Source: Klebsiella phage YMC16/01/N133_KPN_BP. Taken from it: DNA of 58,387 bases. Below the pieces are notes generated by a model. The model was not told the origin of the DNA and made no database searches. It saw only the letters and a list, made by a program, of their open reading frames with translations. The stretch lies in sequence record MF476925.1; one strand, written 5' to 3'. Shown piece after piece: positions 7,419 to 50,996 of the stretch. The translations under genes were made by a program, and so were the position numbers. The first letter of the stretch is position 1, and each line of letters starts with the position of its first letter.

Positions 7419-7635
7419 CATGGAATGTCCGTGGGTCGCGCTACGCGACGTCGTTCACCTCTTTGGCATCACCTACGAGACCGCGAAGAACCGGATATAC
7501 GCCGAGAACTTCCCGGTCCCGGTGCGTAAGGAAGGCAGGCTGCTGGTGGTGGATAAAGCGGTGCTGGAACGTTATTTTGATGAGAGGCGTGCTGAAGATT
7601 TGGCGCGTCTTTCTTCAACCCGTGAATTCAACTAA
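7402..7635 (+). CDS. PrtN-family / excisionase-like small DNA-binding protein (putative activator or Xis)
   Basis: 77 aa. Resembles pyocin activator PrtN-type phage regulators (LFGITYETAKNRIYAENFPVPV). Confidence 0.4.
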   Translation: MQGICDMECPWVALRDVVHLFGITYETAKNRIYAENFPVPVRKEGRLLVVDKAVLERYFDERRAEDLARLSSTREFN

Positions 7636-7652
7636 CTGGTGAGAATGCAACT
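7626..7652 (+). promoter_or_regulatory. Direct repeat TTCAAC-N13-TGCAAC with 19-bp periodicity abutting the endolysin start
   Basis: TTCAAC at 7627 and TGCAAC at 7646. ATG at 7653. Confidence 0.45.
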
Positions 7653-8300
7653 ATGACTCAGGATCAGTTCCGACGTGCCGCGGGTATCACTGACGCGCTG
7701 GCGCAGCAGTGGTACCAGCCCATCACCGAAGCGATGCAGCGCTTCCAGATCAACACTCCGAAACGTCAGGCTGCTTTCCTGGCGCAGATCGGCCACGAGA
7801 GCCGCGGTTTTACCTGCGTGAGCGAGAGCCTTTACTACAAAGACCCGGAGCGCATCGCCCGGATCTTCAAGTCAGGCTTCGACCTCAATAAGAACGGCAA
7901 GGTCGACCTGGCCGAGGTAGAGTTCGCGAAGGGCTATGTCCGGAACTCTGTGAAGCTGGCGAACCGGGCATACGCGAATCGCCTGGGTAACGGGAGCGAA
8001 GCCAGCGGCGACGGGTACAAATTCCGCGGGCGCGGCCCGATGCAGACGACTGGCCGGCGCAACTATGAGCTGACCGGGCAGGGCATCGGCGTCGACCTCA
8101 TCGCGGATCCAGATCGTCTGTCCGACCCGAAGGTGGGCGCGCTGGCCGCTGGCTGGTACTGGAGCGTCAACGGCTGCAACGCGCTCGCCGATAAGGACCA
8201 GTTCACCGCTATCACCGTGCAGATTAACGGCCCTGCCAAACTCGGCCAGGATGACCGGGTGGCGCGCTGGAAACTGGCTAAATCTGTTTTATTGGCTTAA
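7653..8300 (+). CDS. Endolysin, glycoside hydrolase family 19 (chitinase-like lysozyme)
   Basis: 215 aa. The GHESRGF...YYKDPERIA...FRGRGPMQTTGRRNY pattern is typical of GH19 phage endolysins. Confidence 0.75.
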   Translation: MTQDQFRRAAGITDALAQQWYQPITEAMQRFQINTPKRQAAFLAQIGHESRGFTCVSESLYYKDPERIARIFKSGFDLNKNGKVDLAEVEFAKGYVRNSVKLANRAYANRLGNGSEASGDGYKFRGRGPMQTTGRRNYELTGQGIGVDLIADPDRLSDPKVGALAAGWYWSVNGCNALADKDQFTAITVQINGPAKLGQDDRVARWKLAKSVLLA

Positions 8301-8323
8301 TTATTCAACCAAACGTTGAATAA
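8301..8323. promoter_or_regulatory. Perfect palindrome TTATTCAAC-CAAAC-GTTGAATAA
   Basis: 9-bp arms with a 5-nt spacer, between the endolysin and the methyltransferase. Confidence 0.5.
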
Positions 8324-8380
8324 ACAACCGCAGCTGGGGTAAGATGAAGCCCTCTACTACACGATACGGCGGAACTTACT

Positions 8381-9451
8381 TTGGCTGCTTATTACAATGA
8401 GTGGGATAAAGACACGGCCCAGTGGCTCCGGGAACTCATCAAACGCGGCCTGATACCCGACGGCTATGTTGACGACAGGAGCATTGTCGATGTCCATCCA
8501 GATGACCTCAAAGAATTTACCCAGTGCCACTTCTTCGCTGGAATTGCAGGATGGCCTCTCGCCCTCAGAATGGCTGGATGGCCTGATAGCCGACCTGTAT
8601 GGACAGGAAGCCCTCCCTGCCAGCCCTTCAGCAACGCCGGCAAGGGGCTCGGGGCAGACGACCCCCGACATCTCGCTCCCGCCTTTGCCCGCCTCGTCAG
8701 AGAGTGTCGCCCTGCAAGGCTTTTTGGCGAACAGGTTAGCGCAGCGGTTAAGAAAGACCTGTGGGTCGATGATCTACGGACTCGACTGGAGGCAGAAGGC
8801 TACGCCTTTGGATTTTCCGTACTGCCAGCTGCTGGCGTCGGTGCCCCGCATAAAAGAGAGCGAATCTACTTCGGAGCCGGGCTTCTGGTATACCCCGACG
8901 ACGAACGTCAACCCACAGCCAGCGACAGCACGCGGCCTGCAGACACTGTTCGGTCAAGCTCGACACCTGGCGGCGTGGCCGACGGCAGCGGCTTCGGACC
9001 CATCTGGCGGTGGCTCAGCGAGCATCGCGCTCCGCAAGCTATCAGGGGACAAGCGACCGTCGGGGGCGAGTCTGCATTCTGGGCTCCGCGACTTCGTGCA
9101 ACTGGCGGCGTGGCCGACGCCAACGACGAGAGACTGGAAAGATGGGTCGGAATGCTTCAACGTCCCGACGAACTCATTGCTGGGACGTGTGGTGTGGCTG
9201 GCGGACCAGCCTATTCGCATAACAGCTTCTGGGACAGTGCTGACTGGCTCGGATGCCGCGATGGGAAGCTCAGGCCAGTTAGACCCGGCTCATTCCCGCT
9301 GGCTCATGGGATTCCCGGACGTGTGGTGCGACTGCGCGCCTACGGAAACGCGATCGTCCCGCCGCTCGCCGCGGAGTTCATCCTCTCGTTCGAAGAAGCC
9401 ATCGAAGACCTCATCGGATCTGGACGAGCTGATTTAGACGAACTCATTTGA
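8381..9451 (+). CDS. DNA (cytosine-5)-methyltransferase, apparently split across two frames by two compensating frameshifts; both frames end DLDELI
   Basis: Frame of 8381 carries motif I (FFAGIAGW), IV (PCQPFS), VI (LFGEQV), VIII (HKRERIYF) and X (AYGNAIVPPLAAEFI). The overlapping frame (8466..9437) carries the TRD-like repeats (AAWPTPTTRDWKDGSEC, AAWPTAAASDPSGGG) and motif IX RWLMGFPDVW. Confidence 0.7.
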   Translation: MAAYYNEWDKDTAQWLRELIKRGLIPDGYVDDRSIVDVHPDDLKEFTQCHFFAGIAGWPLALRMAGWPDSRPVWTGSPPCQPFSNAGKGLGADDPRHLAPAFARLVRECRPARLFGEQVSAAVKKDLWVDDLRTRLEAEGYAFGFSVLPAAGVGAPHKRERIYFGAGLLVYPDDERQPTASDSTRPADTVRSSSTPGGVADGSGFGPIWRWLSEHRAPQAIRGQATVGGESAFWAPRLRATGGVADANDERLERWVGMLQRPDELIAGTCGVAGGPAYSHNSFWDSADWLGCRDGKLRPVRPGSFPLAHGIPGRVVRLRAYGNAIVPPLAAEFILSFEEAIEDLIGSGRADLDELI

Positions 9452-9457
9452 CCAACG

Positions 9458-9476
9458 ATTCAACTATTCGTTGACT
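9458..9476. promoter_or_regulatory. Imperfect palindrome ATTCAAC-TATTC-GTTGAC immediately downstream of the methyltransferase
   Basis: Same half-site family as 8301-8323. Together they flank the MTase gene. Confidence 0.4.
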
Positions 9477-9868
9477 AAACTACAAAGCGTTGGCTATAGT
9501 GAAATTGTTCTCCTGACAGGTCGTGGCGCCGCACCCCGGTTTCCTCCGTTTCCCGGGATGCGGCGCACCTTCCTATGACACACAACAGGCGAGGGAATTA
9601 CCGGAAGCAACGTTGCGACTCGACACGCAGCCCACTGTGGTAAGTAGTTTCCTCTCCGTTGTGTGTGAATGCGCAGGCTGCAGCGCCCAGATTACATGCC
9701 CGTATCCCGAACTGGTTAAGACATGATTCTGGAAAGACGATGGACCACAGAACGCCATTAATGGCGGCGGGTAACCGCAATGAGGAAGACGCTCCACGGT
9801 CTCAAACTCGTCATGAAAAGGTGGAAGCCCTAAGCCGGATATCAGCCCCGGCCACCACAACGCAACGG

Positions 9869-9942
9869 CGCGGTATAGCATCAATTGGTAATGCAGCGGA
9901 CTCATAATCCGGGAGCTGAAGGTTCGAGTCCTTCTGCCGCCG
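9869..9942 (+). tRNA. tRNA-like element (anticodon CAT; Met/Ile2-like) or attP core; no encoded CCA; 1:72 and 27:43 mismatches
   Basis: Manual fold: acceptor 6/7 pairs. D-stem GCAT/ATGC with loop CAATTGGTA. Anticodon loop CTCATAA. T-arm GAAGG-TTCGAGT-CCTTC. The integrase stop and C-terminal codons overlap its 3' half. Confidence 0.4.
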
Positions 9943-10948
9943 CCTTCTCCACCACTGCCATCGGCATAGCCTTGTCGTGAAGCCTCTCCGGGCTCAGGTG
10001 GGTATAGCGCCTCAGCATATTCCAGTCGCGGTGTCCCGACACCAGCGCGACCTCCTGAATCTCGTAGCCCGCTTCGAACAGCCGGCAGATGCCCTCGTGG
10101 CGCAGGTCGTGCCAGCGGAGGTCCACCAGCCCCGCGCGCTCCACCGCCCGGCACCACGCAGCGCCGATGGACCCGGTCTTGTAAGGGAAGATCTCGCCGC
10201 GCTGGCGCACCTGACGTTTGATGATGTCGAAGGACCTGCCCAGCAGCGGCACGGTCTGGTCATTGCCCTTTTTCAGGGTGGGATGCTTACGGTCCCGGAT
10301 CACCACGGTGCGCTTCGCCTCATCGACGTCGCTCCAGCGTATCCGGCAGACCTCTGCCACCCGCATAGCTGTGTCAATGGAGAAGGCGATCAGCTCGTCC
10401 ATCGGGAGGGTGGACTGCATGTTGTCGAGGATCTGCTCTATCTCGTCATCGCTGACCCGGCGGGCGCGTTCGACAGACCTACCGGTCAGCCCATAGTTCC
10501 GCAGGGCGTGGCGGCCGCGCTTCCACTCGTCCCAGTCAGGGCGTACCTCCCAGAAGGTGTCGGCGTGGCGCAGGGCCATTGCGATGAAGACGAACTCCTG
10601 GTCCATCGTGCTGGGCGCCACGCCGCGGCCTTTGGTGTAGTCGAGCATCCACTTCGCGGTCAGCTGAGAGACGAGCACTCCGCTCAGCTTACGACGGAGG
10701 GTGCGCATCGTGGCGTGGTGGGTGCGCTGCAGAGGCTTAATCGGCAGGACCTCATCAATGTAGCGCTGGATCAGTACGCCGACGTCTGGGTCGTTCGCGT
10801 GGAACTTACCTTCCTCGATCGCGCCCTCCATTTCCCGGACCCATTTCTCCGCGAGGACTTTTTTGCTAAAGGTCTTCGACAGAGTTTTGTGTCCTTTGCG
10901 GCGGACCTGAGCCCTCCATCCTTCGCCGTGTTTGTAGATCGATGCCAT
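9902..10948 (-). CDS. int: Tyrosine integrase
   Basis: 348 aa. C-terminal catalytic region with R...HxLRH...Y pattern (RWHDLRHEG...LVSGHRDWNMLRRYTHL). The 3' end overlaps the tRNA-like sequence. Confidence 0.85.
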   Translation of the reverse strand: MASIYKHGEGWRAQVRRKGHKTLSKTFSKKVLAEKWVREMEGAIEEGKFHANDPDVGVLIQRYIDEVLPIKPLQRTHHATMRTLRRKLSGVLVSQLTAKWMLDYTKGRGVAPSTMDQEFVFIAMALRHADTFWEVRPDWDEWKRGRHALRNYGLTGRSVERARRVSDDEIEQILDNMQSTLPMDELIAFSIDTAMRVAEVCRIRWSDVDEAKRTVVIRDRKHPTLKKGNDQTVPLLGRSFDIIKRQVRQRGEIFPYKTGSIGAAWCRAVERAGLVDLRWHDLRHEGICRLFEAGYEIQEVALVSGHRDWNMLRRYTHLSPERLHDKAMPMAVVEKAAAEGLEPSAPGL

Positions 10949-10954
10949 ACCGTT

Positions 10955-11290
10955 CTTCCTTGTGTGCAGTGACCACTCCGGGCCGTGTGCAATCCAGTGT
11001 GCAGCCCGAAAATTATGGATCGAGGAAGTACAGGTTTTTCAATGGTCTGGCAAACGTCGAGCGTGATCGAAAATGGCCGTGTTTTTGCGTGGTGCACAAT
11101 GGAATTCAATAAGCGAAATCAGTATCTTAACGGCGAAAAAATCTTCGCCATTGCCCCCATGATGGACTGGACGGACTGTTTCTAAGTAGCTGAAATCGCG
11201 TCGATATTTATTTTCGATTTTCCCTGTGTGCAAATTCTGTGCAGTGCGTTTCCGGGTGCACCCGGCGTGGTAGCTCGTGTGCAGTTCTCA
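10955..11290. repeat. Non-coding region with at least 7 copies of a TGTGCA-type motif between int and the small terminase (candidate Int arm-type sites and/or cos/terminase binding sites)
   Basis: Motif copies seen at about 10957, 10994, 11006, 11089, 11228, 11241 and 11274. Confidence 0.4.
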
Positions 11291-11358
11291 ACCATCACTT
11301 GAATGTTCACCTTCCCGTGAGGCATTATTAAACTTTAAAGACTTCAGGACATTCGATT

Positions 11359-14147: not shown

Positions 14148-14174
14148 GTTCAACTTTCCATTGGAAATTCAACT
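14148..14174 (+). promoter_or_regulatory. Direct repeat GTTCAAC-N12-ATTCAAC (19-bp periodicity)
   Basis: TTCAAC at 14149 and 14168. 45 nt upstream of the gpW-like gene. Confidence 0.45.
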
Positions 14175-14218
14175 GGACCTGGAATACACTTGGCGAAACA
14201 CCCGACCGGAATCTCATT

Positions 14219-16104: not shown

Positions 16105-17392
16105 CATCTGGGCTACCCGCGTAGCCAATCAGCCGGTTATGGTCGGTATCGCCGGCGCAGACTGGCTGCAGCAGCATCTGAACGGCGCGGCAATGGCGTC
16201 AGCGCAGCTCGATACCCGCCTGTCCGCGGACACCCCGGTGATGCAGGACGACTTCTGGCCGTCGAAAGACAGCTGGCTGTCCTACTTCCGCCCGTACAAC
16301 GTCTCGCAGGGCACGCTGTACGTCCCGATCAAGGGGATGCTGGTCCACGATTACGGGTATGCTCTCGGCGACTGGCTGACGGGCTACACCTACATCGCCA
16401 AAGCCTTTGAGCGCGGTATGGAAGACCCGGAAGTCGAGCGGATCGCGATGGTCATCTCTTCCGGTGGTGGCGAAGTGGCCGGGAACTTTGACCTCGTGGA
16501 TAAGATTTTCTCGATGCGCGGTCCGAAGCCTATCCAGGCATTCGTGAATGAGGCGGCGTACTCCGCGGCATACTCGCTGGCGTCTGCTGCGGATAAGATA
16601 TCGATGACCCGCACGGCCGGCGTAGGCAGCATCGGCGTGGTAACGGCGCACGTGGACTACAGTGAACTGTACAAAGACGCCGGCATCAAAGTGACGTTCA
16701 TTCATGCTGGCGACCACAAAGTCGACGGCAACCCTTACGAGCCTCTGCCGGAAGAAGTGAAAAAGCGGATGCAGGCGCGTATCGATAGCATGTATGATAT
16801 CTTCGTTTCAACTGTAGCGCGAAATCGTGGGGTGGACGAGAAGGCCATCCGGGATACCGAGGCACTGACGTACTCGGCTTCCGACGCAATTTCTGTCGGT
16901 CTCGCCGATGAAGTGCTACCTTTTGAAGAAGCTGTGGCCGCCTTCTCGGGCGCGCTAACCGATGATCCGGAAGTAGACCCGGACGAAAACTCTGGAGATG
17001 AAAATATGTCTTTTACCCAGGAAGATCTGGATAACGCCCGAGCAGATGGTGTGACGCAGGGCAAAGCTGAAGGCGCAACCGCCGAGCGTGCCCGTATTCA
17101 AGGCATCCTGACTGCGGAAGCGGCGACCAATCGTCGTGAGGTAGCTTTCCACCTCGCGTTGAATACTAACCAATCTGTGGAAGAAGCGACTGCGCTGCTG
17201 GCGATCACGCCTGAGCAAGCTGCGGCCCCTGCTACCACCACCCCTGCCGCCAATGCTTTCGAGCAGGCGATGGCCCACGGCAACCCGAATATCCAACCGG
17301 GTGGTGATAACGCCGAAGCCGCAGAGCAGGACGAATCCGCGAAAACTCTCGCTGAGTTCCGCGCTGTCAACGGCCTCAATAAGAAGGACTAA
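16082..17392 (+). CDS. Prohead protease, peptidase S49 (lambda gpC-like), with Ala-rich C-terminal scaffold-like region (possible nested Nu3-like scaffold)
   Basis: 436 aa. S49 core (VISSGGGEVAG...AYSAAYSLASAADKI). C-terminal low-complexity Ala/Glu-rich segment. Confidence 0.7.
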   Translation: MRTIPMSNIWATRVANQPVMVGIAGADWLQQHLNGAAMASAQLDTRLSADTPVMQDDFWPSKDSWLSYFRPYNVSQGTLYVPIKGMLVHDYGYALGDWLTGYTYIAKAFERGMEDPEVERIAMVISSGGGEVAGNFDLVDKIFSMRGPKPIQAFVNEAAYSAAYSLASAADKISMTRTAGVGSIGVVTAHVDYSELYKDAGIKVTFIHAGDHKVDGNPYEPLPEEVKKRMQARIDSMYDIFVSTVARNRGVDEKAIRDTEALTYSASDAISVGLADEVLPFEEAVAAFSGALTDDPEVDPDENSGDENMSFTQEDLDNARADGVTQGKAEGATAERARIQGILTAEAATNRREVAFHLALNTNQSVEEATALLAITPEQAAAPATTTPAANAFEQAMAHGNPNIQPGGDNAEAAEQDESAKTLAEFRAVNGLNKKD

Positions 17393-20708: not shown

Positions 20709-20736
20709 GATTCAACTATCTGTAGCCATTTCAACG
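20709..20736 (+). promoter_or_regulatory. Direct repeat ATTCAAC-N12-TTTCAAC (19-bp periodicity) upstream of the major tail gene
   Basis: TTCAAC at 20711 and 20730. ATG at 20750. Confidence 0.45.
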
Positions 20737-20749
20737 ATGAGGTGAAAGT

Positions 20750-25200: not shown

Positions 25201-26716
25201 CAAAGTCGGCCTCGGTGGGCTGGTGGAAGGATGGGCGGCCGAAGCACAGAAAGCCTCGGAAGAAGCAGGTAAGAAAGCCGCGGACTCCCAGAAGGCCCAT
25301 GAGCAGGAAATTACCAGCATCCACGCCAAAGCAGCGAAGGACCGCGCGGATATCGATGCGGATATCGCCCGGCAGGTGCAGGACAAACTGACGGAGATTA
25401 GCCGCCGCGGGGAGAAGGACCGGGCGAAGGGCGCCGTTGTTCCTACAGTGCCCGGTGTCAACGCTGGCGCCGGCCTCGGCACGGTAACGCCGCCGTCCGG
25501 CACCTTTAAACCAGATACCTCTGATGCGGATGCCAAAGCTGCAGAGCGCGCGGCGAAGAAGCGTGCACAGCTGGAGCAGAGCGTCGCTGACCAGATCAGC
25601 TCTATCCGGGCGCGTCTGGACCAGAACCGTGCGAACGACCTGGACACCCAGCTGAAGGGCGTCGAAGAAAAGTACAAGGGCCTTTATGACGATCTGCGGA
25701 AACTCGGTCTCAGCGAGACCAGTGAGCAGTGGAAACAGGTCGACGCGCTGAAGGCTCAGGAGATGCAGCTCGTCCGTAATAAAGCGGCGAAGGCAGAACA
25801 GCAGGCCCAAGATAAGAAAACTCGTGAAGACATGCAGAACATCAATGACCTGATGTCTCTGCGTCGAGAGCTGCTGGAACAGATTAAATACGCGGAGGAC
25901 CACGGGGACCCTCAAACAGCTAACAAGTTGAAGGAGCAGTTCAATAACGTCAACGGCCTGATCTCCGCAGCCGCGGATAACATGATTAAGTTCTGGGAGG
26001 CCGCAGGAGGTCCGAAAGCTGATCTTGCTATTGCTAAGCTCAAGGCTCTTAAAGACGGGCTTAAAAATATTGATGATGGCGCTATTCTCACAGCTGACAA
26101 TATTAACAAGACGTTGCTTTCGACTGCGACCAGTGCTGGCGATAGTTTTATTGATAAAATCGCCGAAACTGGGGACGTCTTTGGGTCCCTGAAAGAATCG
26201 TTTCTTGACTTCGTAAGCTCCTTCTTGACGGGCATCGCGAAGATGATCATGCAGCAAATCATCTTCAATGCCCTGTCATCTGCCGGTTCAGCTGGCGGCG
26301 GCGGGGGCCTCGGAGGGATTATTATGAGCGGTATATCAGCGATGACCGGCTCGGCTCACACCGGGGGTATTGCCGGATCGCCGACACTGAACAAGCGCTC
26401 CGTGAACCCGGGCGTCTTCGCCAACGCTGTCCGGTATCACACAGGCGGCGTTGTCGGCCTGCAGCCGTGGGAAGTGCCGATTATCGCGAAGAAGAACGAA
26501 GAGGTGCTGACGGAGGATGACCCGCGGCACATTAACAACGTCGGCAGTTCAACAGAAAGTGGAAACGGCAACTCCGGTATGTCAAACTTGCAAATCATCA
26601 ATGCCATCGATTCCGAGTCGGTGGTGCAAGCGGGGCTTTCGTCGCCGGCCGGAGTTAAGACAGTCATCAACCTGGTCAAAGCGAACAAGCAGACGTTTAA
26701 ATCGATACTGGCTTAA
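22244..26716 (+). CDS. Tail tape measure protein
   Basis: 1490 aa. Long Ala/Gln/Lys-rich coiled-coil N-terminal half, internal TM-like segment, position after G/GT. Confidence 0.85.
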   Translation: MAKGEVDLIIKAKNEASKSLDAITASLKNLTDQQIIAGDSADKADGKLASLSLELTKLRTNAQNLQQLANIGAVIDKATAALERQKETLQQANSEQQKLASQSETMKSRQQELSASLKLATADLEKQKAAVTSARSSLSELNKEATTLTNGQRNAQRSLDALTKLIATQEAALEKAAAKHAQLAAAVDAAEKPTKRLTTSLEAAERALAKRQAALDASRQKEAGLRDTLTQNATAQEKNAAAIAEATSKLQSEQKAADAAKAAVSALNTESSSLSKSQQSLSRDMEKSAATTAELQKGLDASQAEFSQIQAVADKARAKVGQASASMTDVGQSAVQAAAQLATFAARMKVLQAGSGTSSLKTTLFDPAAVTDALSALSKAQAVVQATERDYSRAAVSADDLKNATIAAGKAGQTLSTVTTAVTQQKAAVDGAEASWKAAEAEVKRLAIAMREAGQPSEQLAAALGQAQGQAKLAKNEFLNQKNVGDQLAKALQQAGVGAGTLSSAEASLAGSTRAATSTMNQATQASNALASAQNNAQQSGSRLQSFFASLVSGGNRVATAAGQAAGGLAKIRSGAVSASGPVGSLTGELRGLVAQVAGLYAIKEGITGIIQTSNQFDALSAKLGVAFAGDVTKANQALDYSLAVARNLKLPLLETANSYSQLASAARGTSLEGDGVNKIFTAFAQAARVTRTSTADLDGIFRALTQSISKGKVQAEELRGQLGDRLPGAIQLMASALGVGTKDLEKMLEKGQLTTDTLVRMAAEVSSRVAPELEKALNSPQAKLQAFQNSWTELQLKLAQSGFLDAIANAAERFGDALSRPDVIQSVTELGQGLANLVNYFAQLEDPVGKVTTLFEVLVGLQLASWIGGIITGLVSMVSGLYALATAAAAADIALAPILITVGALAALFALPWLATWAYDNFPVFAELVLKSKGAALQAWSGIVEGWNVAGALLVNSFEQVINNIMAMWRSMMSWIATTSSDLLSKVGLGGLVEGWAAEAQKASEEAGKKAADSQKAHEQEITSIHAKAAKDRADIDADIARQVQDKLTEISRRGEKDRAKGAVVPTVPGVNAGAGLGTVTPPSGTFKPDTSDADAKAAERAAKKRAQLEQSVADQISSIRARLDQNRANDLDTQLKGVEEKYKGLYDDLRKLGLSETSEQWKQVDALKAQEMQLVRNKAAKAEQQAQDKKTREDMQNINDLMSLRRELLEQIKYAEDHGDPQTANKLKEQFNNVNGLISAAADNMIKFWEAAGGPKADLAIAKLKALKDGLKNIDDGAILTADNINKTLLSTATSAGDSFIDKIAETGDVFGSLKESFLDFVSSFLTGIAKMIMQQIIFNALSSAGSAGGGGGLGGIIMSGISAMTGSAHTGGIAGSPTLNKRSVNPGVFANAVRYHTGGVVGLQPWEVPIIAKKNEEVLTEDDPRHINNVGSSTESGNGNSGMSNLQIINAIDSESVVQAGLSSPAGVKTVINLVKANKQTFKSILA

Positions 26717-33818: not shown

Positions 33819-33844
33819 TTCAACCAATATTTGATTATTCAACT
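33817..33844 (+). promoter_or_regulatory. Direct repeat GTTCAAC-N12-ATTCAAC (19-bp periodicity) upstream of the fiber gene
   Basis: TTCAAC at 33819 and 33838. ATG at 33854. Confidence 0.45.
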
Positions 33845-33853
33845 GAGGGTATC

Positions 33854-34633
33854 ATGGCGGCGAAACAAGATCCTGTCCTCGGCCTTAACTACGGCTGGCT
33901 ACTCGGCGAAGACAACTGGAACACCGGGATGGACGCCAACCTTAAAAAGCTGGGCGCCCTTGTGATGGGCGCCGCAGCCTCGGTAGCTAATACGCCGGCG
34001 GTCACATCCAATGGCGCCAGGTATATCGTGGGGGCTTCACCGACTGGTGACTTTGCCGGTCAGTCCAACAAGCTCGCCGTGCGCATCGAGGGAGCCTGGC
34101 AGTTCTATGCGCCTGCAGCAGGCTGGGCGGTGTTCGACCTGTCGGTGTCCCGCTATCGCATCTTCAATGGTACTACCTGGGCGCTGGAGAAGGCCGTCAT
34201 TGACGCACGCAGCTTCCTGGAAGCGGCTAACCCGGGCTCGTGGACGTTCCCGACGGCAACCTGGATGAAGGTGCCACTGTACACGGTAACCACCGACACC
34301 GCGAATGCGTGGGATACCTCGACCAACACAGACTATGTCGTACCTGCGGACGGGATGTATCAGGTGGATGCAATAGTACGCCCGATCCGTTCTGGCACAG
34401 GGGCACTGCCAGACAGCACCTCTCTGGCAGTAGGCGTTGGCACGACTGCTGCAGACTCAAAAGACGTTGTCTGGGGCGCCGGCCTCGCGACAGCACTCCC
34501 ATTTTCGCTGGCGGTCTCCCGGGTCCTCCGCTGTGCTGCGGGGGACCGGCTATCCCTGTTCGCCCGTCACGCGGCTGCGGGCGCGGTAGGGATGGCATTT
34601 GCCAGCCTGACCATTCTCAATCTTTCGGAATAA
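33854..34633 (+). CDS. Tail fiber protein, DUF2793-like N-terminus (LGLNYGW) with jelly-roll (C1q-like) C-terminal domain
   Basis: 259 aa. NYGW motif typical of DUF2793 tail-fiber proteins. Confidence 0.45.
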   Translation: MAAKQDPVLGLNYGWLLGEDNWNTGMDANLKKLGALVMGAAASVANTPAVTSNGARYIVGASPTGDFAGQSNKLAVRIEGAWQFYAPAAGWAVFDLSVSRYRIFNGTTWALEKAVIDARSFLEAANPGSWTFPTATWMKVPLYTVTTDTANAWDTSTNTDYVVPADGMYQVDAIVRPIRSGTGALPDSTSLAVGVGTTAADSKDVVWGAGLATALPFSLAVSRVLRCAAGDRLSLFARHAAAGAVGMAFASLTILNLSE

Positions 34634-37257: not shown

Positions 37258-38352
37258 ATGACTATATTGATTCAGGATTCATTACGTCGCGCCGTTGAAG
37301 CGGCCTCCCGCGGTGCGCAGACCGTGCTTTATACCCGATCTGGCGACCCGTCGTTTGTGAATATCATCCCCAAGTTTGACGTCAGCACGATTGATGCTTC
37401 GCTGGGATCAGGAACACACCCGGCGTTTATCATTAACGGCACCGAGGTTGACCAGATTTTCGTTGGCACCTACCCCGGCTGTATTGTTAACGGCCAACTG
37501 CTGTCCCTTCCGGACCGGATACCCGCCACGTCGGTGGCCTATGATACGGGCATCGGTCTCGCCCGGGCGGCCGGCATCGGCTGGCACGCCATGACAAACG
37601 CGGAATGGGCGGCAATCGCTTTGTTGTGCTATGCACAGGGGCAATCACCGCGCGGCAATACCAACTGGGGGCTGTCATCGGATAACCCCAGCGAGAAGGG
37701 GCGGCGGGCAGACGGGCTGGCCGCCGGGACCGAATCCGGAACGGGTCTGACGCTGACCGGCTCCGGTCCTGTCAGCTGGCGGCACAACCGCGACTATGCA
37801 GGCATTGCAGACCTGGCAGGCAACATTTGGGAGACCGTTACCGGGGTCCGTTTCTGCGGTGGCGAGCTGCAGATAATGGTCAATAACGACGCCGCGCTTT
37901 ACACCACCGACCACACGTTATCCTCAACGGCATGGAAAGCCGTTAGTGGTGTGGATGGGTCTCTTCTTACGCCGACTGGCACCGGAACGCCGGGAACAGG
38001 TTCATATGTTCCAACCACACCTAACTCAGTTCGTATCGGCCTTTCGGGGACCGGGAATTACACACTGATTTATGGTGAAAATACGCTGTTCACCAGTGCC
38101 ACGAACCCCGGGGCTACGCCGGTATCCGATGTCGCGCTAAGGGTGCTGCGCCGACTGATGTTGTTCCCGCTGCCGGGTCTGATTTCCGACGACTCCTTAT
38201 CGTATAAAGCGGGCGGGGAGGTCATGACACTCCGCGGCGGGGCGTATACCAACGGGGCTGGCGGGGGCATCAACGCGCTACTCGCTAACCGTGGACGTAC
38301 TTCAGTTGGTCGATCTAACTCTGGTGTCCGTCCTGTTTACTACAAGCCTTGA
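37258..38352 (+). CDS. Tail fiber / receptor-binding protein with FGE-sulfatase (DUF1566-like) type domain
   Basis: 364 aa. GIGWHAMTNAEWAAIALL resembles the lectin-like FGE/SUMF1 fold seen in some phage fibers. Tentative. Confidence 0.35.
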   Translation: MTILIQDSLRRAVEAASRGAQTVLYTRSGDPSFVNIIPKFDVSTIDASLGSGTHPAFIINGTEVDQIFVGTYPGCIVNGQLLSLPDRIPATSVAYDTGIGLARAAGIGWHAMTNAEWAAIALLCYAQGQSPRGNTNWGLSSDNPSEKGRRADGLAAGTESGTGLTLTGSGPVSWRHNRDYAGIADLAGNIWETVTGVRFCGGELQIMVNNDAALYTTDHTLSSTAWKAVSGVDGSLLTPTGTGTPGTGSYVPTTPNSVRIGLSGTGNYTLIYGENTLFTSATNPGATPVSDVALRVLRRLMLFPLPGLISDDSLSYKAGGEVMTLRGGAYTNGAGGGINALLANRGRTSVGRSNSGVRPVYYKP

Positions 38353-38357
38353 CATTA

Positions 38358-38385
38358 ATGCGCCATACGGCGCATTTCTTTCCTC
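38358..38385 (+). terminator. Rho-independent terminator after the fiber gene
   Basis: GCGCCATACGGCGC hairpin followed by ATTTCTTTCC. Confidence 0.55.
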
Positions 38386-38407
38386 TTTCCCGGCGTGGTG
38401 ACAGAAG

Positions 38408-38572
38408 ATGTTTATGAGGATTAGCTTTAAAAAGTCGAAATGGTCCCTCTTGTTATTTATTAAACTGATCACCGTGGCAATGTTGACTAATTTATTTGGT
38501 ATTGGATGGGGCCTTCTGGCTGTTGCGGTAGTGGAGTCTCTTCCATCCATCGAGATTAAGAGGTCGATGTGA
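38408..38572 (+). CDS. Small hydrophobic peptide (54 aa) in an AT-rich island: MFMRISFKKSKWSLLLFIKLITVAMLTNLFGIGWGLLAVAVVESLPSIEIKRSM
   Basis: Basic N-terminus plus one TM helix. AT-rich codons unlike the rest of the genome. Not in the ORF track because it is under 60 aa. Confidence 0.3.
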   Translation: MFMRISFKKSKWSLLLFIKLITVAMLTNLFGIGWGLLAVAVVESLPSIEIKRSM

Positions 38573-38667
38573 CCGCCTTCGGGTCCACGAAGGCTATCAC
38601 CCCCGATAATGGATGAGTCTAGCCGTGGCGTGGGTGCGGGGCCTAGTTTTTTTTGTCGTTACGGATA

Positions 38668-38735
38668 GTGGAAATTTCCACTGGAAGTGTCCAGAATAGT
38701 CCGAAGCGATCCGCTAACCGACTACAGGACTATTC
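38668..38735. promoter_or_regulatory. Cluster of palindromes upstream of the holin: GTGGAAATTTCCAC (38668-38681), CTGGA-N4-TCCAG, and 9-bp inverted repeat GAATAGTCC-N24-GGACTATTC (38694-38735)
   Basis: Directly seen. Ends 2 nt before the ATG at 38738. Confidence 0.5.
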
Positions 38736-38737
38736 TT

Positions 38738-39163
38738 ATGACTGATCCAGTTACCACCGGCACCACTCTGACGGCTGCGGCCGCCGGGGTCGGTGCCATC
38801 GGCTGGTGGGCCGGACTTGACCCGGGCACGGTCGTCGGTGCTTTCACCGGCGCCGTGTTTTTTGTTACCTATGCAAAAGAGCTGACGACCCGGGCGCGGT
38901 TCGGCTATGGCTTCGTCAGCTTTGTTTTCGGAATAGTCTGTGCGCAATGGTTTGCCGAGCTGCTATCGTGGGTAGTGAGCGCCTTCGTACCGGGTGACCA
39001 CAGCAAAGCACCCGTTCCCGTTGGCGCCGTGGTGGCCGCCACACTAGCGATCAGGATCCTCACGGCGATATCGACAAAGGAATTCAGCAACGCCGTTATT
39101 TCCCGGCTGCTGAGCTGGCTGCAGGCGGTCGTGGCTAAACCGAAGAACGGAGGGTCAGAATGA
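38738..39163 (+). CDS. Holin (multi-TM)
   Basis: 142 aa from the internal ATG. 3-4 predicted TM helices (AAGVGAIGWWAGL, VVGAFTGAVFFV, FVSFVFGIVCAQW, VGAVVAATLAI). Confidence 0.45.
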   Translation: MTDPVTTGTTLTAAAAGVGAIGWWAGLDPGTVVGAFTGAVFFVTYAKELTTRARFGYGFVSFVFGIVCAQWFAELLSWVVSAFVPGDHSKAPVPVGAVVAATLAIRILTAISTKEFSNAVISRLLSWLQAVVAKPKNGGSE

Positions 39164-42878: not shown

Positions 42879-42940
42879 GTTGTTTCCTTAGCCCTGACAG
42901 GCGTGTTTGGTTTTCATCATTGATACTACCACCAGCGGAA

Positions 42941-43010
42941 TAATATTCAACCTTTAGTTGAGTGAATTTACACTGGGCATGAAAAAGCCCCGGTGAAGGG
43001 GCTTTGGGTT
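42941..43010 (-). promoter_or_regulatory. Repeated about-70-bp cassette (copy 1): minus-strand Rho-independent terminator (GCCCCTTCACCGGGGCTTTTT), then a TTGAAT-N16-TAGTAT sigma70-like promoter, containing palindrome ATTCAAC-CTTTA-GTTGAGT
   Basis: Nearly identical copy at 44955-45025. Confidence 0.5.
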
Positions 43011-44895: not shown

Positions 44896-44954
44896 ACGTT
44901 CTCCTGATTGAAAAGTGATTTGACTACGGGATTGAGCATACCACTTCCGGGAGA

Positions 44955-45025
44955 ACATTCAACCTTTAGTTGAGTAATTTTTACCTGGGCATGAAAAAGC
45001 CCCGGCTGTCGGGGCTTCGGGTCAG
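44955..45025 (-). promoter_or_regulatory. Repeated cassette (copy 2): terminator (GCCCCGACAGCCGGGGCTTTTT) then TTGAAT-N16-TATGCT promoter with ATTCAAC-CTTTA-GTTGAGT
   Basis: See copy 1. Confidence 0.5.
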
Positions 45026-46652: not shown

Positions 46653-46990
46653 GAGTCCTCCGATAAACGGGCAAGTTCTTCCAGGTCAGCGCGCTCGATA
46701 AGTTTGCCGCGCATCTCCTTTTCGAGTTTGTTTTCCATCTTCTCCAGGCAGCTCTTCAGCATCCGCAAGCCGGTCTCAGGGAACGGGCTGGTGGAGATGC
46801 CGTCGAGGGTGGCCCGGAGGCTTTTGTTCGCCGCACGCGGCGCGATAGCCCGCGCGCAGTGGCGCAGGGCTACCGGTACGCTGCGCTTGTCCAGCTGGGC
46901 TTCCTTGCGCGCCAGCTCCAGCGTCCAGATGGCATCCGGGAATTCGGCGTACTTCGACGCCATGATCAGGTCCATTGGCACAAAGCTCAT
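46649..46990 (-). CDS. Hypothetical protein
   Basis: 113 aa from the internal Met (GGGAGG Shine-Dalgarno). Confidence 0.35.
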   Translation of the reverse strand: MSFVPMDLIMASKYAEFPDAIWTLELARKEAQLDKRSVPVALRHCARAIAPRAANKSLRATLDGISTSPFPETGLRMLKSCLEKMENKLEKEMRGKLIERADLEELARLSEDS

Positions 46991-47097
46991 CCCTGACCTC
47001 CCGGTATCACGCAGGTCCACACTGCCAGCAGGCCAAGCGCCAGAGCGCCGGCCATCCACGCCAGGGTGATCAGCATCTCGCGTTTCTGGTTCGGCAT
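46987..47097 (-). CDS. Unannotated 36-aa membrane peptide (MPNQKREMLITLAWMAGALALGLLAVWTCVIPGGQG)
   Basis: ATGA-coupled on both sides. One TM helix. Confidence 0.3.
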   Translation of the reverse strand: MPNQKREMLITLAWMAGALALGLLAVWTCVIPGGQG

Positions 47098-47291
47098 CAC
47101 AGGTCCTCCACCGGTGCGCTGTAACGCCATTTGCAGATGGCGCGCTCGGAACGCGGGCTGCTCTGTCCCCGCCGTTTGCAGTCAGGGCACTCAACGTAGT
47201 AACGGACGCCGCCGGCGCCCACCGTTTGCTTCACTTCCGCGTCGCCCCCGCAGGGGCAAACGAGTAATGGTTTGAGGTTGGCTGGCATCAT
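47097..47291 (-). CDS. Lar-family restriction-alleviation-like zinc-finger protein
   Basis: 64 aa. LKPLLVCPCGG...YYVECPDCKRRG resembles the Lar/Rac restriction alleviation proteins (CPFCGG...C..C). Confidence 0.4.
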   Translation of the reverse strand: MMPANLKPLLVCPCGGDAEVKQTVGAGGVRYYVECPDCKRRGQSSPRSERAICKWRYSAPVEDL

Positions 47292-48358
47292 CAGATCAGG
47301 TCCTCATCTTCGACGTCGCCAGTAAGTGACTTCGGCTCGTCCAGCTCTTCGCCGTTGACGTGGCTGATCTTCCAGCCCTTCAGCGCGTCTACCATCGACT
47401 GCACTTCGTCGTCGCTCATGTCGCGCAGCGCTTCACCGCCCAGTGACACGACAACGCCGTCAACCAGCGAGTCCAGCGCATCCACGGTCAGCAGCAGAGT
47501 AGCCTTCGCCAGCGCGATACCGGATTCGTCTTCCGTGTCGGCGCCGGCGTCGTCCTGCGCCATGTCGATCAGCGCGTCAGGCCAGGATACCGATTTGAAT
47601 GCCAGGTTTTCGTTGAGGATGAAGCGCGTGCCGCCGTGCAGGTGGTCGTCGTAGTAGCCCAGCTCCAGCGACACGACCTGGTAGTCTTCGCTCAGCAGCT
47701 CGCTCAGGGTCGAAGAGTCGAGATCGACGCTTTTCCCAGAGAGCACCTGGGACCCCTCCAGCTTGCCCTTCGCAGTGAACGCTTCGCCCACTGACAGCTG
47801 CGACGGGACAACCGTGCCGGCTACCCAGTCCGTGAACTGCGTGACGACGGGCTTCTTCGCCGTCAGCGGCTGCACGGGTAACGAGCCGAGCACACGACGG
47901 ACCGCGCCCAGCACCAGCTCCGCCTTCTTCGCGCTGGTGGTTTCAACGTAGACCCAGCTGCCGCTGATCAGCACGTTCACGCGGCTGTAGTCGATCAGCG
48001 CGTTTTCCATCATCCCGATGATGACGTCGTTCTTCAGGCCCTGCTTCTCGTCCTTCGTGGGGACGCGGGCATACTTTTCTTCCCAGTCCTTCAGGCGCTT
48101 ATCCAGCTCGCGCTTGACGATCTTGTTCGGGACAATGCGCAGCGCGGTTTCCAGCGTCAGCGCGTACTTGTTCTTCGCCAGCACGGTCAGCAGCTCATCG
48201 TTGCCGTCGATGGTGGGCACGAAGCCTGAGCGTTGCATCTGAAAGGTGGCCGGATCGCCGGCAGGCAGCACAGCCAGGCGCTCGGGTAGTATGTCGAACG
48301 GTACCTTGTCTGCCTTCAGCAGCCGGTACACCAGAAAACTCTTGAATCCTGCTTTCAT
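47291..48358 (-). CDS. Recombination-associated protein RdgC-like with acidic tail ...DVEDEDLI
   Basis: 355 aa. N-terminal FKSFLVYRL compared with E. coli RdgC FKNLMVYRL, and similar domain length. Confidence 0.6.
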   Translation of the reverse strand: MKAGFKSFLVYRLLKADKVPFDILPERLAVLPAGDPATFQMQRSGFVPTIDGNDELLTVLAKNKYALTLETALRIVPNKIVKRELDKRLKDWEEKYARVPTKDEKQGLKNDVIIGMMENALIDYSRVNVLISGSWVYVETTSAKKAELVLGAVRRVLGSLPVQPLTAKKPVVTQFTDWVAGTVVPSQLSVGEAFTAKGKLEGSQVLSGKSVDLDSSTLSELLSEDYQVVSLELGYYDDHLHGGTRFILNENLAFKSVSWPDALIDMAQDDAGADTEDESGIALAKATLLLTVDALDSLVDGVVVSLGGEALRDMSDDEVQSMVDALKGWKISHVNGEELDEPKSLTGDVEDEDLI

Positions 48359-48744
48359 GACAGGGTCTCCTGCAGTCGTGATTATTTTTCCCGTTGAGCC
48401 GTCTCAACTGACGCAAGAATACTCAACAAAAGGTATGTTTCCCAAACGGATTTACTCAGCCAAATTTTTGGAACGAGCAAGGTTTTTGAAAATTCAGGGA
48501 TTTTTGCCGAACTACTGGGTACCCTTCCAGCGGTTTTCAGCGTGGCGCCACGGTGCTGCAGTTTGCGAAATCTTTTGCCCAACCGAAAATTACACGCTTT
48601 TTGAGGGGGTCGGGCGGGGTCGGGTATGGGGCGCAGGCCGCGCACGCGCCGCGCTGCCGGGCGTTCTCTGGTGACTGTATGCGACGGTACAGGGTCGAGG
48701 GTTGCGCCGCTCCTGACGCGTTACAGCGCGTTTTACGGCGCAGG

Positions 48745-48790
48745 GGGTGGCGGGGTCCCCTTTCGGGGGTCCCCTTTCGGGGGTCGCCGG
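48745..48790. repeat. GC-rich tandem repeat GGGGTCCCCTTTC x2 with flanking G-tracts (part of the 48360-48860 non-coding region)
   Basis: GGGGTCCCCTTTCGGGGGTCCCCTTTCGGGGGTCGCC seen directly. Further G-tracts at 48590-48625. Confidence 0.6.
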
Positions 48791-48814
48791 GCGCTGGCGG
48801 GGCCGATCAACGGG

Positions 48815-48842
48815 CATAAAAAAGCCCGCTCGAAAGCGGGCA
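48815..48842 (-). terminator. Rho-independent terminator (minus strand) after the YjgR-like gene
   Basis: Minus strand reads GCCCGCTTTCGAGCGGGCTTTTTTATG. Confidence 0.65.
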
Positions 48843-48863
48843 AAGGGCGCACGGCGTTACAGA

Positions 48864-50360
48864 CTATCGGCGGCGGGGGCGCTGGTGGTTGGCGCGGCCC
48901 TGGGCAATGCCCGCGCATACCGCTAAGGATAGCACAAGGGGCAGCGGGTACAGGATGACGGCAGGCGGCAGCAGCGCGGAGATCTTGGACACGACCCCGG
49001 ACCACGGAGCGCACAGGACACCGCCCACGGCGACGGCGGCAAGGTATAGCCAGCCGTGGCGACGGTCTGCCTTGCTGCTGTCATCGCGTGGCAAGTTCTG
49101 AATGTTAGGGTAAGGAGATTGCCAGCGCCCACGGCTCACGCGCTCCGCGCCGGGCACGGTCTCCGGCTCACGCCATCCGGGGAACATCAAGGCGGCGCGT
49201 TCTGCGTCACTGAGTGGGGACAAGCGGCAGCGCGGCAGCGCCATTTTGACAACGCGCGCGGCGGTCAGCGTGCCATCGTCACCCATGAATGAGACCAGCG
49301 CGGACCCTTTCGGCAGCGTCCCGATCACATCGGCAGCTTTAAAGCCCACGGGCGCGGGCATCGACTGCGCGGCGGCGTACACTGCCCGGGCATCAGCAGG
49401 CGTCACCGACCGCAGCGCGTGCTGTATGCGCAGGTGTAGCTGCCGTGAGATGCTATCCGGCAGATCGCCGGGTGCCTGCGTGGCGAAGAATACGCCTACA
49501 CCTTTTGAGCGGATGAGGCGCACGGTCTGATCTATCATGCGCAGCAGCTCGGGCGGCGCGTCATCGAATATCAGGTGAGCCTCATCGAGGATCATTGCGA
49601 AAATCGGCTTGTCAGTGTCTCCGACTTCAGGCAGCAGCGCCGCCAGGCGGTCAAGTATCATCATGAGAACGGCGGCATAGAGCCGGGGCGCACGTATCAG
49701 GCGCACGCAGTCGAGCATTGAGACAACGCCGCGCCCGTCGGGGGTATGCGCCAGCAGGTCAGCAAGGGCGAACGTGGAGCGGTCAAAGAAGGCCGCGCCG
49801 CCTGCGCGTTCAAGGCCCAGGATCGCCCGGCCAATTGCTGCGACGCTCGACGGCGTGATCAGACCGTAGCGGCTGCCGATGGCGTCCCGGTTCTCCGCGC
49901 AATGGTTCACCACGGTGCGCAGGTCCCGCAACGTGTCGAGCGGCAGCCCGTCATCCTCCGCAACGGCGAAAGCGATCTCTATCACGCCCGCCTGCACATC
50001 GGTAGCGCCCAGCGCACGCGCCACCAGCGCGGGACCCATCGCCCGGATCGTGGTGGTCAGCGGTCCGCCGCGCTCCCGGAAAACGTCCAGCAGGCGCACG
50101 GGCGCGGCTTCAGGTCGCCAGCCGGGGAACTCCTTCGCGCCGTCGAGCGTCGACGCCGCCGCCATCCCTGAGAGGTCGCCTTTTACGTCTGTGAGGAATA
50201 CCGGGACGCCGATCCGCGCCAGCGACTCAGCAAGCCCGATTGCGCTCACGCTTTTACCGGTACCCGTTGCGCCCGCGATCAAGCCGTGGCGGTTGAGGTA
50301 CTTCGCAGGGACGAAAACGGGGCCGCAGTCGGCCCCGATCATAATCTGGTAGTTAGTCAT
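48864..50360 (-). CDS. YjgR/DUF853-family HerA-like P-loop ATPase with C-terminal TM segments
   Basis: 498 aa. NRHGLIAGATGTGKSV, GVPVFLTDVKGDLSG, RLIRSKGVGVFFATQAPGDLPD and LRIQHALRSVTP closely parallel E. coli YjgR. Confidence 0.65.
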   Translation of the reverse strand: MTNYQIMIGADCGPVFVPAKYLNRHGLIAGATGTGKSVSAIGLAESLARIGVPVFLTDVKGDLSGMAAASTLDGAKEFPGWRPEAAPVRLLDVFRERGGPLTTTIRAMGPALVARALGATDVQAGVIEIAFAVAEDDGLPLDTLRDLRTVVNHCAENRDAIGSRYGLITPSSVAAIGRAILGLERAGGAAFFDRSTFALADLLAHTPDGRGVVSMLDCVRLIRAPRLYAAVLMMILDRLAALLPEVGDTDKPIFAMILDEAHLIFDDAPPELLRMIDQTVRLIRSKGVGVFFATQAPGDLPDSISRQLHLRIQHALRSVTPADARAVYAAAQSMPAPVGFKAADVIGTLPKGSALVSFMGDDGTLTAARVVKMALPRCRLSPLSDAERAALMFPGWREPETVPGAERVSRGRWQSPYPNIQNLPRDDSSKADRRHGWLYLAAVAVGGVLCAPWSGVVSKISALLPPAVILYPLPLVLSLAVCAGIAQGRANHQRPRRR

Positions 50361-50363
50361 CGT

Positions 50364-50591
50364 TCAGGACCCCGCGAATATAAATTTTTCACCGAAAGCG
50401 CGGACTTTGCAGCACTCACAGCGAAAGGAGTTTTCGCCCTCCACGGTCTCCGCCATTGAGAGCGGACCGTGTGCGGACTTCAGGAGGGCATAACCTGAAA
50501 ACATCGCGGTTTCACGCTCGATCGGCATATCCTCGATCTCATCGTTGGCGATGTAGTTCGCGCAGCTGGCGCACAGTTCGAAAGTAATCAT
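50364..50591 (-). CDS. Small Cys-rich protein (CxxC...CxCC)
   Basis: 75 aa. Confidence 0.4.
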   Translation of the reverse strand: MITFELCASCANYIANDEIEDMPIERETAMFSGYALLKSAHGPLSMAETVEGENSFRCECCKVRAFGEKFIFAGS

Positions 50592-50594
50592 AAT

Positions 50595-50735
50595 TCATGC
50601 TCCTGCATTCAGGCCGCGCAGGGCGACCCGAAAGTAATGTTTTGCGAGGATCCGCGCTTCAGTGGTCCTGATGGCTGCGAACTCACGCGCAAGCCGGTAG
50701 GCCGGGTGATTCCTGTATGCCTGCTGCCGGTTCAT
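50595..50735 (-). CDS. Unannotated 46-aa basic ORF (MNRQQAYRNHPAYRLAREFAAIRTTEARILAKHYFRVALRGLNAGA)
   Basis: Fills the gap between two ORFs with ATGA coupling. Coordinates approximate to +/-1. Confidence 0.25.
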   Translation of the reverse strand: MNRQQAYRNHPAYRLAREFAAIRTTEARILAKHYFRVALRGLNAGA

Positions 50736-50968
50736 ATCAGCGACTCCTGCACCTCGATTATCAGGCACTGCGCCGGCATCTCATCCGCGCGGCTCGTTAC
50801 CACTATCGCCGCCTTTTGGGTGATGCTTACGCCGATCTGTGAGGCGGCGGCGCTAAACTGTTTTTGCACGCGGGTAACGTCGCCGCCATCGACCGCCCAC
50901 AAGGTGCGGTCGCCGGGCTTCATAGTCCGCAGTAAATCTATCTTGCTGGATACCGGGTTGATCATCAT
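50732..50968 (-). CDS. Hypothetical protein
   Basis: 78 aa. Preceded directly by the 19-bp direct-repeat motif. Confidence 0.4.
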   Translation of the reverse strand: MMINPVSSKIDLLRTMKPGDRTLWAVDGGDVTRVQKQFSAAASQIGVSITQKAAIVVTSRADEMPAQCLIIEVQESLI

Positions 50969-50996
50969 GTTGAATATTCCACAAATGGTTGAATGT
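50966..50996 (-). promoter_or_regulatory. Direct repeat ATTCAAC-N12-ATTCAAC (minus-strand orientation) abutting the start codon
   Basis: Plus strand GTTGAA at 50969 and 50988 (19-bp periodicity). Confidence 0.45.

Follow-up and report, generated by a model that had tools for sequence, protein, structure and literature searches.

Tandem TTCAAC repeats of Klebsiella phage YMC16/01/N133_KPN_BP as part of a genome-wide set of putative operators for a CI-like protein

Genome-wide repressor networks are already known from a few other temperate phages. In phage P1, one immunity repressor, C1, serves many operators over a large genome, which are asymmetric, 17 base pairs (bp) long and mostly overlap the promoters of separate operons. 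The sites of Streptomyces phage phiC31 are intergenic inverted repeats of 17 bp, among them the autoregulatory operator of the repressor itself. In mycobacteriophage L5 (Cluster A), the repressor gp71 has more than 20 dispersed repressor sites, at promoters and in short intergenic gaps, and their orientation follows transcription (PMC9283540, PMC4557955). Here we analysed the whole 58,387-nucleotide sequence of Klebsiella phage YMC16/01/N133_KPN_BP (MF476925.1; hereafter the window), in which an earlier note had described TTCAAC direct repeats with a 19-bp period upstream of five genes and had taken them for tandem-binding sites of a transcription activator. Our results confirmed that the repeats are real and highly non-random. 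Sequence comparisons suggest that they are part of about 25 operators for a putative helix-turn-helix (HTH) protein of the phage, the CI-like product of the gene at 6753-7418, a reading to which we give a probability of roughly 0.6.

The exact arrangement TTCAAC-N13-TTCAAC was found on the plus strand at 14149, 20711 and 33819 and once on the minus strand, at 50969, which makes four times against 0.01 expected, and none of 100 shuffled sequences reached four. The fifth site, 7627/7646, reads TTCAAC...TGCAAC and has one mismatch. When two mismatches were allowed, the number of sites rose to 25, against 2.7 expected. Distances between TCAAC copies on the same strand had a sole peak at 19 (6 pairs in the window and 18 in relatives), no other distance exceeding five. 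From the end of the second repeat to the start codon there are 1, 14, 10 and 0 nucleotides (nt), respectively, for the endolysin (ATG 7653), the major tail protein (ATG 20750), the DUF2793 protein (ATG 33854) and the minus-strand gene starting at 50968, and 45 nt for gpW (ATG 14219). The repeats before five genes, their exact period, their closeness to the start codon in four cases and the enrichment that the earlier note had proposed to check with a weight matrix and a shuffled genome were thus all borne out.

An iterated weight matrix converged on a 17-bp inverted repeat, TTCAAC-N5-GTTGAA, which is also the top de novo dyad both in the window and in Achromobacter phage AchV4. This palindrome occurs in the window at 14 sites with at most one mismatch (0.07 expected) and at 27 sites with at most two, about 25 loci overall. 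Both spacings give narrow peaks, direct pairs at 19 bp and inverted pairs at N5, and the half-sites of the palindrome are 11 bp apart, as expected for an HTH dimer. The consensus of 20 aligned, gene-oriented sites, a-TTCAAC-tAa..-GTTGAa-Ta-TtCaAC-.g...-GT.g.a, consists of two palindromes 2 bp apart, a strong one (O1) and after it a weaker one (O2), the best-kept part of the latter being its left half, TTCAAC. The 19-bp direct repeat therefore corresponds to the left halves of two tandem palindromes, and the repeats as first noted were an incomplete description of the element. Sites were also found beyond the range noted earlier, for example at 1485, 2419, 6706, 51228, 52675-52760, 56866, 57142 and 57234. 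The weak matches at 57648 and 58120 are one sequence counted twice, because of the end repeat described below.

The placement of the sites is far from random. Eighteen of the 27 are intergenic in a genome of which 6.9% is non-coding (p = 4e-15), and in 12 of 13 cases O2, or the half-site at +19, lies on the side nearer the local gene and in its orientation. Automated distances to the next open reading frame (ORF) start were noisy, TTG inside GTTGA being counted as a start, and were used qualitatively only.

The gene of the candidate binder and its control region, which carries the motif itself, are as follows.

6753-7418, plus strand: gene of the CI-like HTH regulator, with an XRE-type N-terminal domain and a beta-rich C-terminal domain.
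6664-6741, plus strand: control region of the CI-like gene, with a weak palindrome (6664-6680) and -35 TTGACA (6676-6681), -10 TAGATG (6699-6704), a strong palindrome at about +1 (6706-6722) and a weak copy (6725-6741).

Comparison with nine relatives showed that a palindrome at or just after the -10 of the CI-like gene (TTGACx, 17 nt, weak -10) is present in most of them, the placement of the -10 being ambiguous in L010 and L020. The nine include a 45%-identical homologue, with this layout, in an unrelated prophage of the cI/cro type. The protein matched PHROG 2967 ('transcriptional regulator') and Pfam HTH_3, and its N-terminal domain resembles P22 C2, 434 Cro and TP901-1 CI in both fold and sequence matches. 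The AchV4 homologue, AchV4_0078, has been reported to be 58% identical to the HTH protein of Klebsiella phage YMC16/01/N133_KPN_BP (PMC7996906), and we found 57.9%. The recognition helix, S-H-E-A-V-R-K-W-F, is nearly invariant among 60 homologues, and in the few cases where residues at its start or in helix 2 differ, the outer operator bases differ too (TT to AT, GT or AA); this linkage, seen in a few lineages only, is no more than suggestive.

Enrichment of the motif follows the CI-like gene among related phages. AchV4 has nine exact dyads against 0.02 expected, and the motif is also enriched in many relatives from IMG/VR and in a prophage that has dus, dnaJ and uvrB of the host as neighbours, from an assembly that bears the label Sinorhizobium medicae. 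In Pseudomonas phage SS2019XI the motif takes the form ATCAAC-N5-GTTGTA (12 exact cores, 0.9 expected). In complete genomes with the CI-like gene, the core CAAC-N5-GTTG was found 6 times in the window (0.7 expected), 14 times in AchV4 (1.3 expected) and 12 times in SS2019XI (0.9 expected), while in Phobos (L043) it was not enriched (2 against 0.8 expected), nor was it in PspYZU01. All the motif-bearing relatives examined have the CI-like gene between their helicase and lysis genes; in Phobos and PspYZU01 the endolysin gene follows the helicase gene directly and there is no CI-like gene at the syntenic position. Sites recur at syntenic positions before the CI-like, endolysin, post-endolysin, gpW, polymerase and major tail genes. 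The tandem pair before the major tail gene was found in L002/3, L009, L010, L014, AchV4, L019/20, L024 and SS2019XI, and is absent in Phobos and PspYZU01; it is kept in at least eight diverged phages, and its N13 varies except for the start of the right half, G (8/8) and T (7/8). The motif thus tracks the CI-like gene and not the small gene downstream of it that had been proposed as the source of the binder, and the CI-like protein is most likely, on this co-occurrence, the one that binds. In Burkholderia phage AH2 (L035/L036; 5547-13000, 57620) a different palindrome, set between the -35 and the -10, was observed at the early promoters, TTGACAC-N9-GTGTC-N3-TAnnnT (6 exact dyads against 0.07 expected).

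The sites of the window were divided into two classes. At class A sites, about nine in number (8304, 9459, 11287, 14149/14168, 57234 and, on the minus strand, 42962, 44974, 51244 and the Dam promoter at 52728), the right half of O1 is at the same time a -35 hexamer (TTGAAT, TTGACT, TTGACA or TTGGAA), and TAnnnT follows 16-18 nt on, immediately after O2. Within the window, the sigma-70 consensus is matched best (10 of 12 positions) at the 9459 and 51204 sites, and at both the -35 lies inside a palindrome. Among 110 non-redundant sites across the clade, a -10 at 16-18 nt was found at 19 on the gene strand and at 4 on the opposite strand, with a background of 1.9% (p = 3e-13). The spacer sequence of class A sites varies between phages and the promoter geometry is kept.

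8304-8345, plus strand: perfect palindrome 8304-8320, -35 TTGAAT (8316-8321), 18-nt spacer, -10 TAAGAT (8340-8345); geometry conserved at the syntenic site in L002, L006, L009, L010, L014 and L037.
9459-9500, plus strand: palindrome 9459-9475, -35 TTGACT, 18-nt spacer, -10 TATAGT.
11287-11328, plus strand: site upstream of terS, CTCAAC-N5-CTTGAA, -35 TTGAAT, 18-nt spacer, -10 CATTAT.
14149-14190, plus strand: tandem operators before gpW (ATG 14219), O1 14149-14165 (-35 TTGGAA), O2 14168-14184, -10 TACACT (14185-14190); an identical CAACTGnAnnTGGAATACACTT block precedes the gpW gene of AchV4.
42923-42962, minus strand: site after a terminator, CTCAAC-N5-GTTGAA, -35 TTGAAT, 16-nt spacer, -10 TAGTAT.
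44935-44974, minus strand: site after a terminator and upstream of a pyrophosphatase gene, CTCAAC-N5-GTTGAA, -35 TTGAAT, 16-nt spacer, -10 TATGCT.
51204-51244, minus strand: palindrome, -35 TTGACA, 17-nt spacer, -10 TACATT; probably the main leftward promoter.
52675-52760, both directions: control region between two divergent genes, Dam on the minus strand and 52771 on the plus strand, with palindromes 52675, 52694 and 52736 (the last a class B site); the -35 operator of each promoter sits in the 5' leader of the opposite gene.
56858-57275, no single strand: three sites around the Cro/YdaS-like gene (56883-57134, minus strand), at 56866, at 57142 (directly before its ATG) and at 57234 (with a rightward -10 TTAAAT at 57270-57275).

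At these promoters O1 extends from about -47 to -31, including the -35, and O2 from about -28 to -12. Because the two operators cover the -35 and the spacer, a repressor is a better reading than an activator, and this fits with class A promoters that look competent unaided. The bound HTH protein would compete with region 4 of sigma and with the polymerase and would shut the promoter, as can be likened to lambda CI at OR2/OR1 of PR. Cooperative binding of two adjacent dimers to O1 and O2 would agree with the constant offset of 19 bp and with an O2 that in many cases retains its left half only. The statement of the earlier note that the repeats are not sigma-70 -35 elements is right in part only: at these sites, 14149/14168 included, the right half matches a -35 and a -10 lies 16-18 nt on; at 7627, 20711, 33819 and 50969 the ATG intervenes.

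The latter four sites belong to class B, the members of which are 2419 (polymerase), 7627 (endolysin), 20711 (major tail), 33819 (fibre), 50993 (minus strand) and 52736. Here the pair fills the gap from the upstream stop codon or terminator to the next gene, the ribosome-binding site lies in a right half, and the ATG is within 0-14 nt of the second TTCAAC, so that a downstream promoter cannot fit.

2402-2443, plus strand: terminator hairpin 2402-2420, then TTCAACTGACTGTGGAGCATTCAAT, 2 nt before the DNA polymerase ATG (2446).
7627-7651, plus strand: TTCAAC-N13-TGCAAC, 1 nt before the endolysin ATG; syntenic in L006, L009, L037 and AchV4.
20711-20746, plus strand: tandem pair TTCAAC-N13-TTCAAC before the major tail ATG, with the ribosome-binding site GAGGTGA inside the second copy.
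33819-33854, plus strand: tandem pair directly after the upstream stop codon, before the ATG of the DUF2793 protein.
50952-50993, minus strand: tandem pair, the second TTCAAC of which abuts the ATG at 50968.

A like arrangement, terminator followed by TTCAAC-N13-TTCAAC and ATG, was found in prophage L037. Protein bound at class B sites may act in the lysogen as a roadblock to read-through, for example of the repressor's own transcript into the co-oriented endolysin gene or of transcripts that pass leaky terminators. We put forward, as a tentative and rather doubtful proposal, that these pairs are orientation-dependent elongation roadblocks made by a dimeric or tetrameric XRE repressor with a C-terminal domain of PD-(D/E)xK fold; such a stoperator-like silencing network would have evolved independently of the actinophage systems and been kept across phages of alpha-, beta- and gamma-proteobacteria. 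Another possibility is that repressor oligomers bridge dispersed sites into loops and so compact the prophage. Class B sites were also considered as promoters of leaderless messenger RNA (mRNA), GAnnAT being often present 5-7 nt before the ATG, but no -35 fits, and at 2419 a terminator occupies its position; this reading was set aside as unproven. Between two minus-strand genes, at 48403-48427, the plus strand reads GTTGAG-ccgt-CTCAAC, N13, CTCAAC, a site that fits neither class cleanly.

Comparison with the known systems showed that the layout of the sites in the window parallels that in L5 and in phiC31. As with the L5 stoperators, there are many dispersed copies (27 with at most two mismatches, 14 with at most one), they stand both at promoters (about nine) and in promoterless gaps, squeezed between a stop codon or terminator and an ATG, and their orientation correlates with the direction of transcription (12 of 13). 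The L5 site is asymmetric, 13 bp long and bound by a monomer with two domains, whereas that of the window is a palindrome of 17 bp that often comes as a tandem pair, which points to dimers. Apart from the HTH the two proteins are not related, the window and its relatives have proteobacterial hosts, and the block to elongation, demonstrated for L5, is one that we infer for the window. The likeness to phiC31 lies in dispersed, conserved inverted repeats; the repressor family (three isoforms in phiC31), the host and the promoters are different, and we know of no 19-bp tandem arrangement or doubling as -35 in phiC31. The P1 repressor belongs to another family than the CI-like protein, and to our knowledge P1 has no class of sites abutting start codons.

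With lambda, 434 and P22 CI, the CI-like protein shares an XRE-type HTH, palindromic operators, adjacent ones of which lie over the -35 and the -10, and probably autoregulation. Unlike these phages, the window has about 25 operators rather than 6, and the protein has no S24 peptidase C-terminal domain. Unlike in lambda, the CI-like gene (6753) is about 8 kb from the Cro-like gene (57134) and not divergent from it, being co-oriented with the replication and lysis genes; in L042 a 45%-identical CI-like homologue and a P22_Cro-like gene are divergent. Residues ~105-215 of the CI-like protein, its C-terminal domain, were modelled with a predicted local distance difference test score (pLDDT) above 90 and gave no match to Peptidase_S24. 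The best folds of this domain in the PDB were of the PD-(D/E)xK type (Hjc, I-Ssp6803I and the SPARDA nuclease domain), all weak matches (E ~2e-3, template modelling score 0.45-0.57), and no conserved (D/E)xK motif was evident in it. As the domain is not an S24 peptidase, self-cleavage of the RecA type is not expected, which raises the question of how induction works.

A temperate lifestyle is supported by the tyrosine integrase gene of the window (9902-10948, minus strand) and by the relative integrated beside host genes in the Sinorhizobium medicae-labelled assembly, which has the same sites. Several observations weigh against the reading of the sites as operators of a CI-like repressor. L002 and L010 have the CI-like gene and the motif and no integrase in the fetched region, and the role of the CI-like protein may therefore be in lytic timing, either instead of one in lysogeny or alongside it. 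A number of class B sites come after terminators, where an extra roadblock seems redundant, and the right halves of class B sites show little conservation, an oddity if the binder is a symmetric dimer. In AH2, the CI-like protein of which is 40% identical, the core was found 4 times against 1.0 expected, with no significant enrichment. Three sites are intragenic and may be a by-product of conserved protein coding.

1477-1520, no strand assigned: site in the exonuclease gene, palindrome 1485-1501.
17147-17182, no strand assigned: site in the protease gene, palindrome 17147-17163.
26548-26572, no strand assigned: motif match at the end of the tape-measure gene.

In AchV4 (51262 and 5750) the palindromes of 1485 and 17147 are found again over the same codons, which encode F-N-x-x-L-K and A-F-(H/N)-L-A-(L/M)-N, respectively. 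The protease-gene sites of the window and AchV4 each have a second copy 19 bp downstream.

A further point against the CI-like protein as the only binder is that the Cro/YdaS-like protein (56883-57134) could share or own some of the sites. We consider it unlikely that this protein is the main binder, or that it shares the operators with the CI-like protein as lambda Cro and CI do, even though its gene is flanked by three sites, one of them directly before its ATG, and the recognition helices of the two proteins look alike by eye (VYKWI and VRKWF). Evidence for such a role also comes from Phobos, where the syntenic CI-like gene is lacking and TTCAAC-N5-GGTGAA stands 3 nt before the ATG of the Cro-like gene, the product of which is a homologue with 50% identity; the two Phobos palindromes (6534-6550 and 50950) lie one before this gene and the other in another intergenic position. 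In Phobos and PspYZU01 the Cro-like gene is present and the motif is not enriched over the genome, phages with the motif in common have Cro-like proteins of no more than 44-50% identity, and BLASTP gave no alignment between the N-terminal domain of the CI-like protein and the Cro-like protein. The sharing of a few early operators would, in addition, fit equally with operators that belong mainly to the CI-like protein.

We also considered whether class B sites act in the mRNA, by a hairpin that sequesters the ribosome-binding site (UUCAAC/GGUGAA) or as a translational operator. The sites do overlap the ribosome-binding site and the start codon, their orientation is always sense, and the right half is often GGTGA, like a Shine-Dalgarno sequence. 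The folds of six class B regions were no stabler than those of shuffled sequences (z from -0.9 to +1.2), no Rfam match was found at the sites, and the left half is conserved across phages without compensatory changes in the right half. At class A sites the motif is upstream of the transcription start and is thus not transcribed. An RNA-level function is accordingly quite improbable.

The mechanism of the earlier note was largely wrong. It had suggested that the tandem repeats are sites of an activator, with a PrtN-like protein encoded at 7402-7635 as the candidate; such sites would define phage-specific late promoters. We place the gene of this candidate as follows.

7420-7635, plus strand: small Xis/Cox-like gene, 76% identical to AchV4_0079, which is annotated as a putative excisionase.

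An alternative ORF, 7382-7642, is in the wrong frame and was rejected. A tandem site for a protein remains very probable, as the 19-bp period is real and conserved; it is activation, and this activator, that we judge very improbable. The small gene is just upstream of the late region, late genes are preceded by the repeats, and the gene is well conserved (76% identity with AchV4 and 85-88% with L006 and L009). The region 7402-7635 gave no Pfam match at E <= 0.05, PrtN included, and a weak excisionase-type PHROG match (E = 0.0025). The homologue is absent from L002 and L010, where the endolysin gene follows the CI-like gene directly, yet these phages retain the palindromes, and also the tandem pair that precedes the major tail gene. 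In four of the five noted cases the ATG is 0-14 nt on, and a transcript started downstream would lack a ribosome-binding site or start codon. Wherever a -10 hexamer is present, the site covers the -35 and the second copy the spacer up to the -10, which is the geometry of a repressor.

That no dedicated protein is involved, the motif being a family of sigma-70 promoters (possibly bidirectional) or a host-factor site, is scarcely credible: the right half is TTGACA-like, and a -10 at the proper spacing was found at about 17% of sites, but most sites have none, the left half (-47 to -42) has no sigma-70 role and is yet the best-conserved part, the opposite-strand count (4/110) rejects bidirectional promoters, and the presence of the motif goes with that of a phage gene whether the hosts are alpha-, beta- or gamma-proteobacteria. 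Among host-factor sites, the RcsAB box (core GAATATTC) and those of IHF, sigma-E and sigma-54 were compared, and none fits the TTCAAC/CAAC core or its geometry.

A literature search with the hexamers returned primer noise only, the motif is not mentioned in the AchV4 genome paper (PMC7996906) or in the Rhodobacter phage paper, and searches on Casjensviridae and phiC31 gave nothing specific; no published description was found in the searchable literature. If the CI-like protein does bind these operators, temperate phages like Casjensviridae gain a readable regulatory map, with about nine sigma-70 promoters, each gated by the one repressor, in addition to the gene-start sites, which may halt read-through. 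Repressor networks of genome-wide extent, held to be unusual and known mainly from actinobacteriophages, would then exist also in phages of Gram-negative hosts, Klebsiella included. The operator consensus can be used to flag immunity groups and the temperate potential of phages that are candidates for therapy, and the repressor-operator pair is a compact part for synthetic gene switches.

The genome in which the sites are set is of the Casjensviridae type, with a replication module (405-6656), lysis/lysogeny genes and structural genes up to 38352, and a leftward operon with nucleotide metabolism genes, a primase gene and the Cro/YdaS-like gene. A complete transfer RNA gene for methionine (tRNA-Met, anticodon CAT; 9869-9944, plus strand) reaches into the 3' end of the integrase gene. 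It lies some 370 nt downstream from the strongest motif-associated promoter (9471-9500) and may mark the region of the attachment site. At the end of the window, 57447-57915 is repeated exactly at 57919-58387, in tandem with a period of 472 bp, and 57688-57918 is found again, without any change, at 64-294. Assembly wrap-around or terminal redundancy is the apparent cause, with a unit genome of about 58.1 kb. A stretch of some 830 bp with the holin gene at its centre of interest (38000-38827) is 96% identical to Klebsiella phages KPN N137, U2874 and N98, although the phage collection gave no close match to the rest of the genome; this points to Klebsiella as the host and suggests a recent exchange of the lysis cassette.

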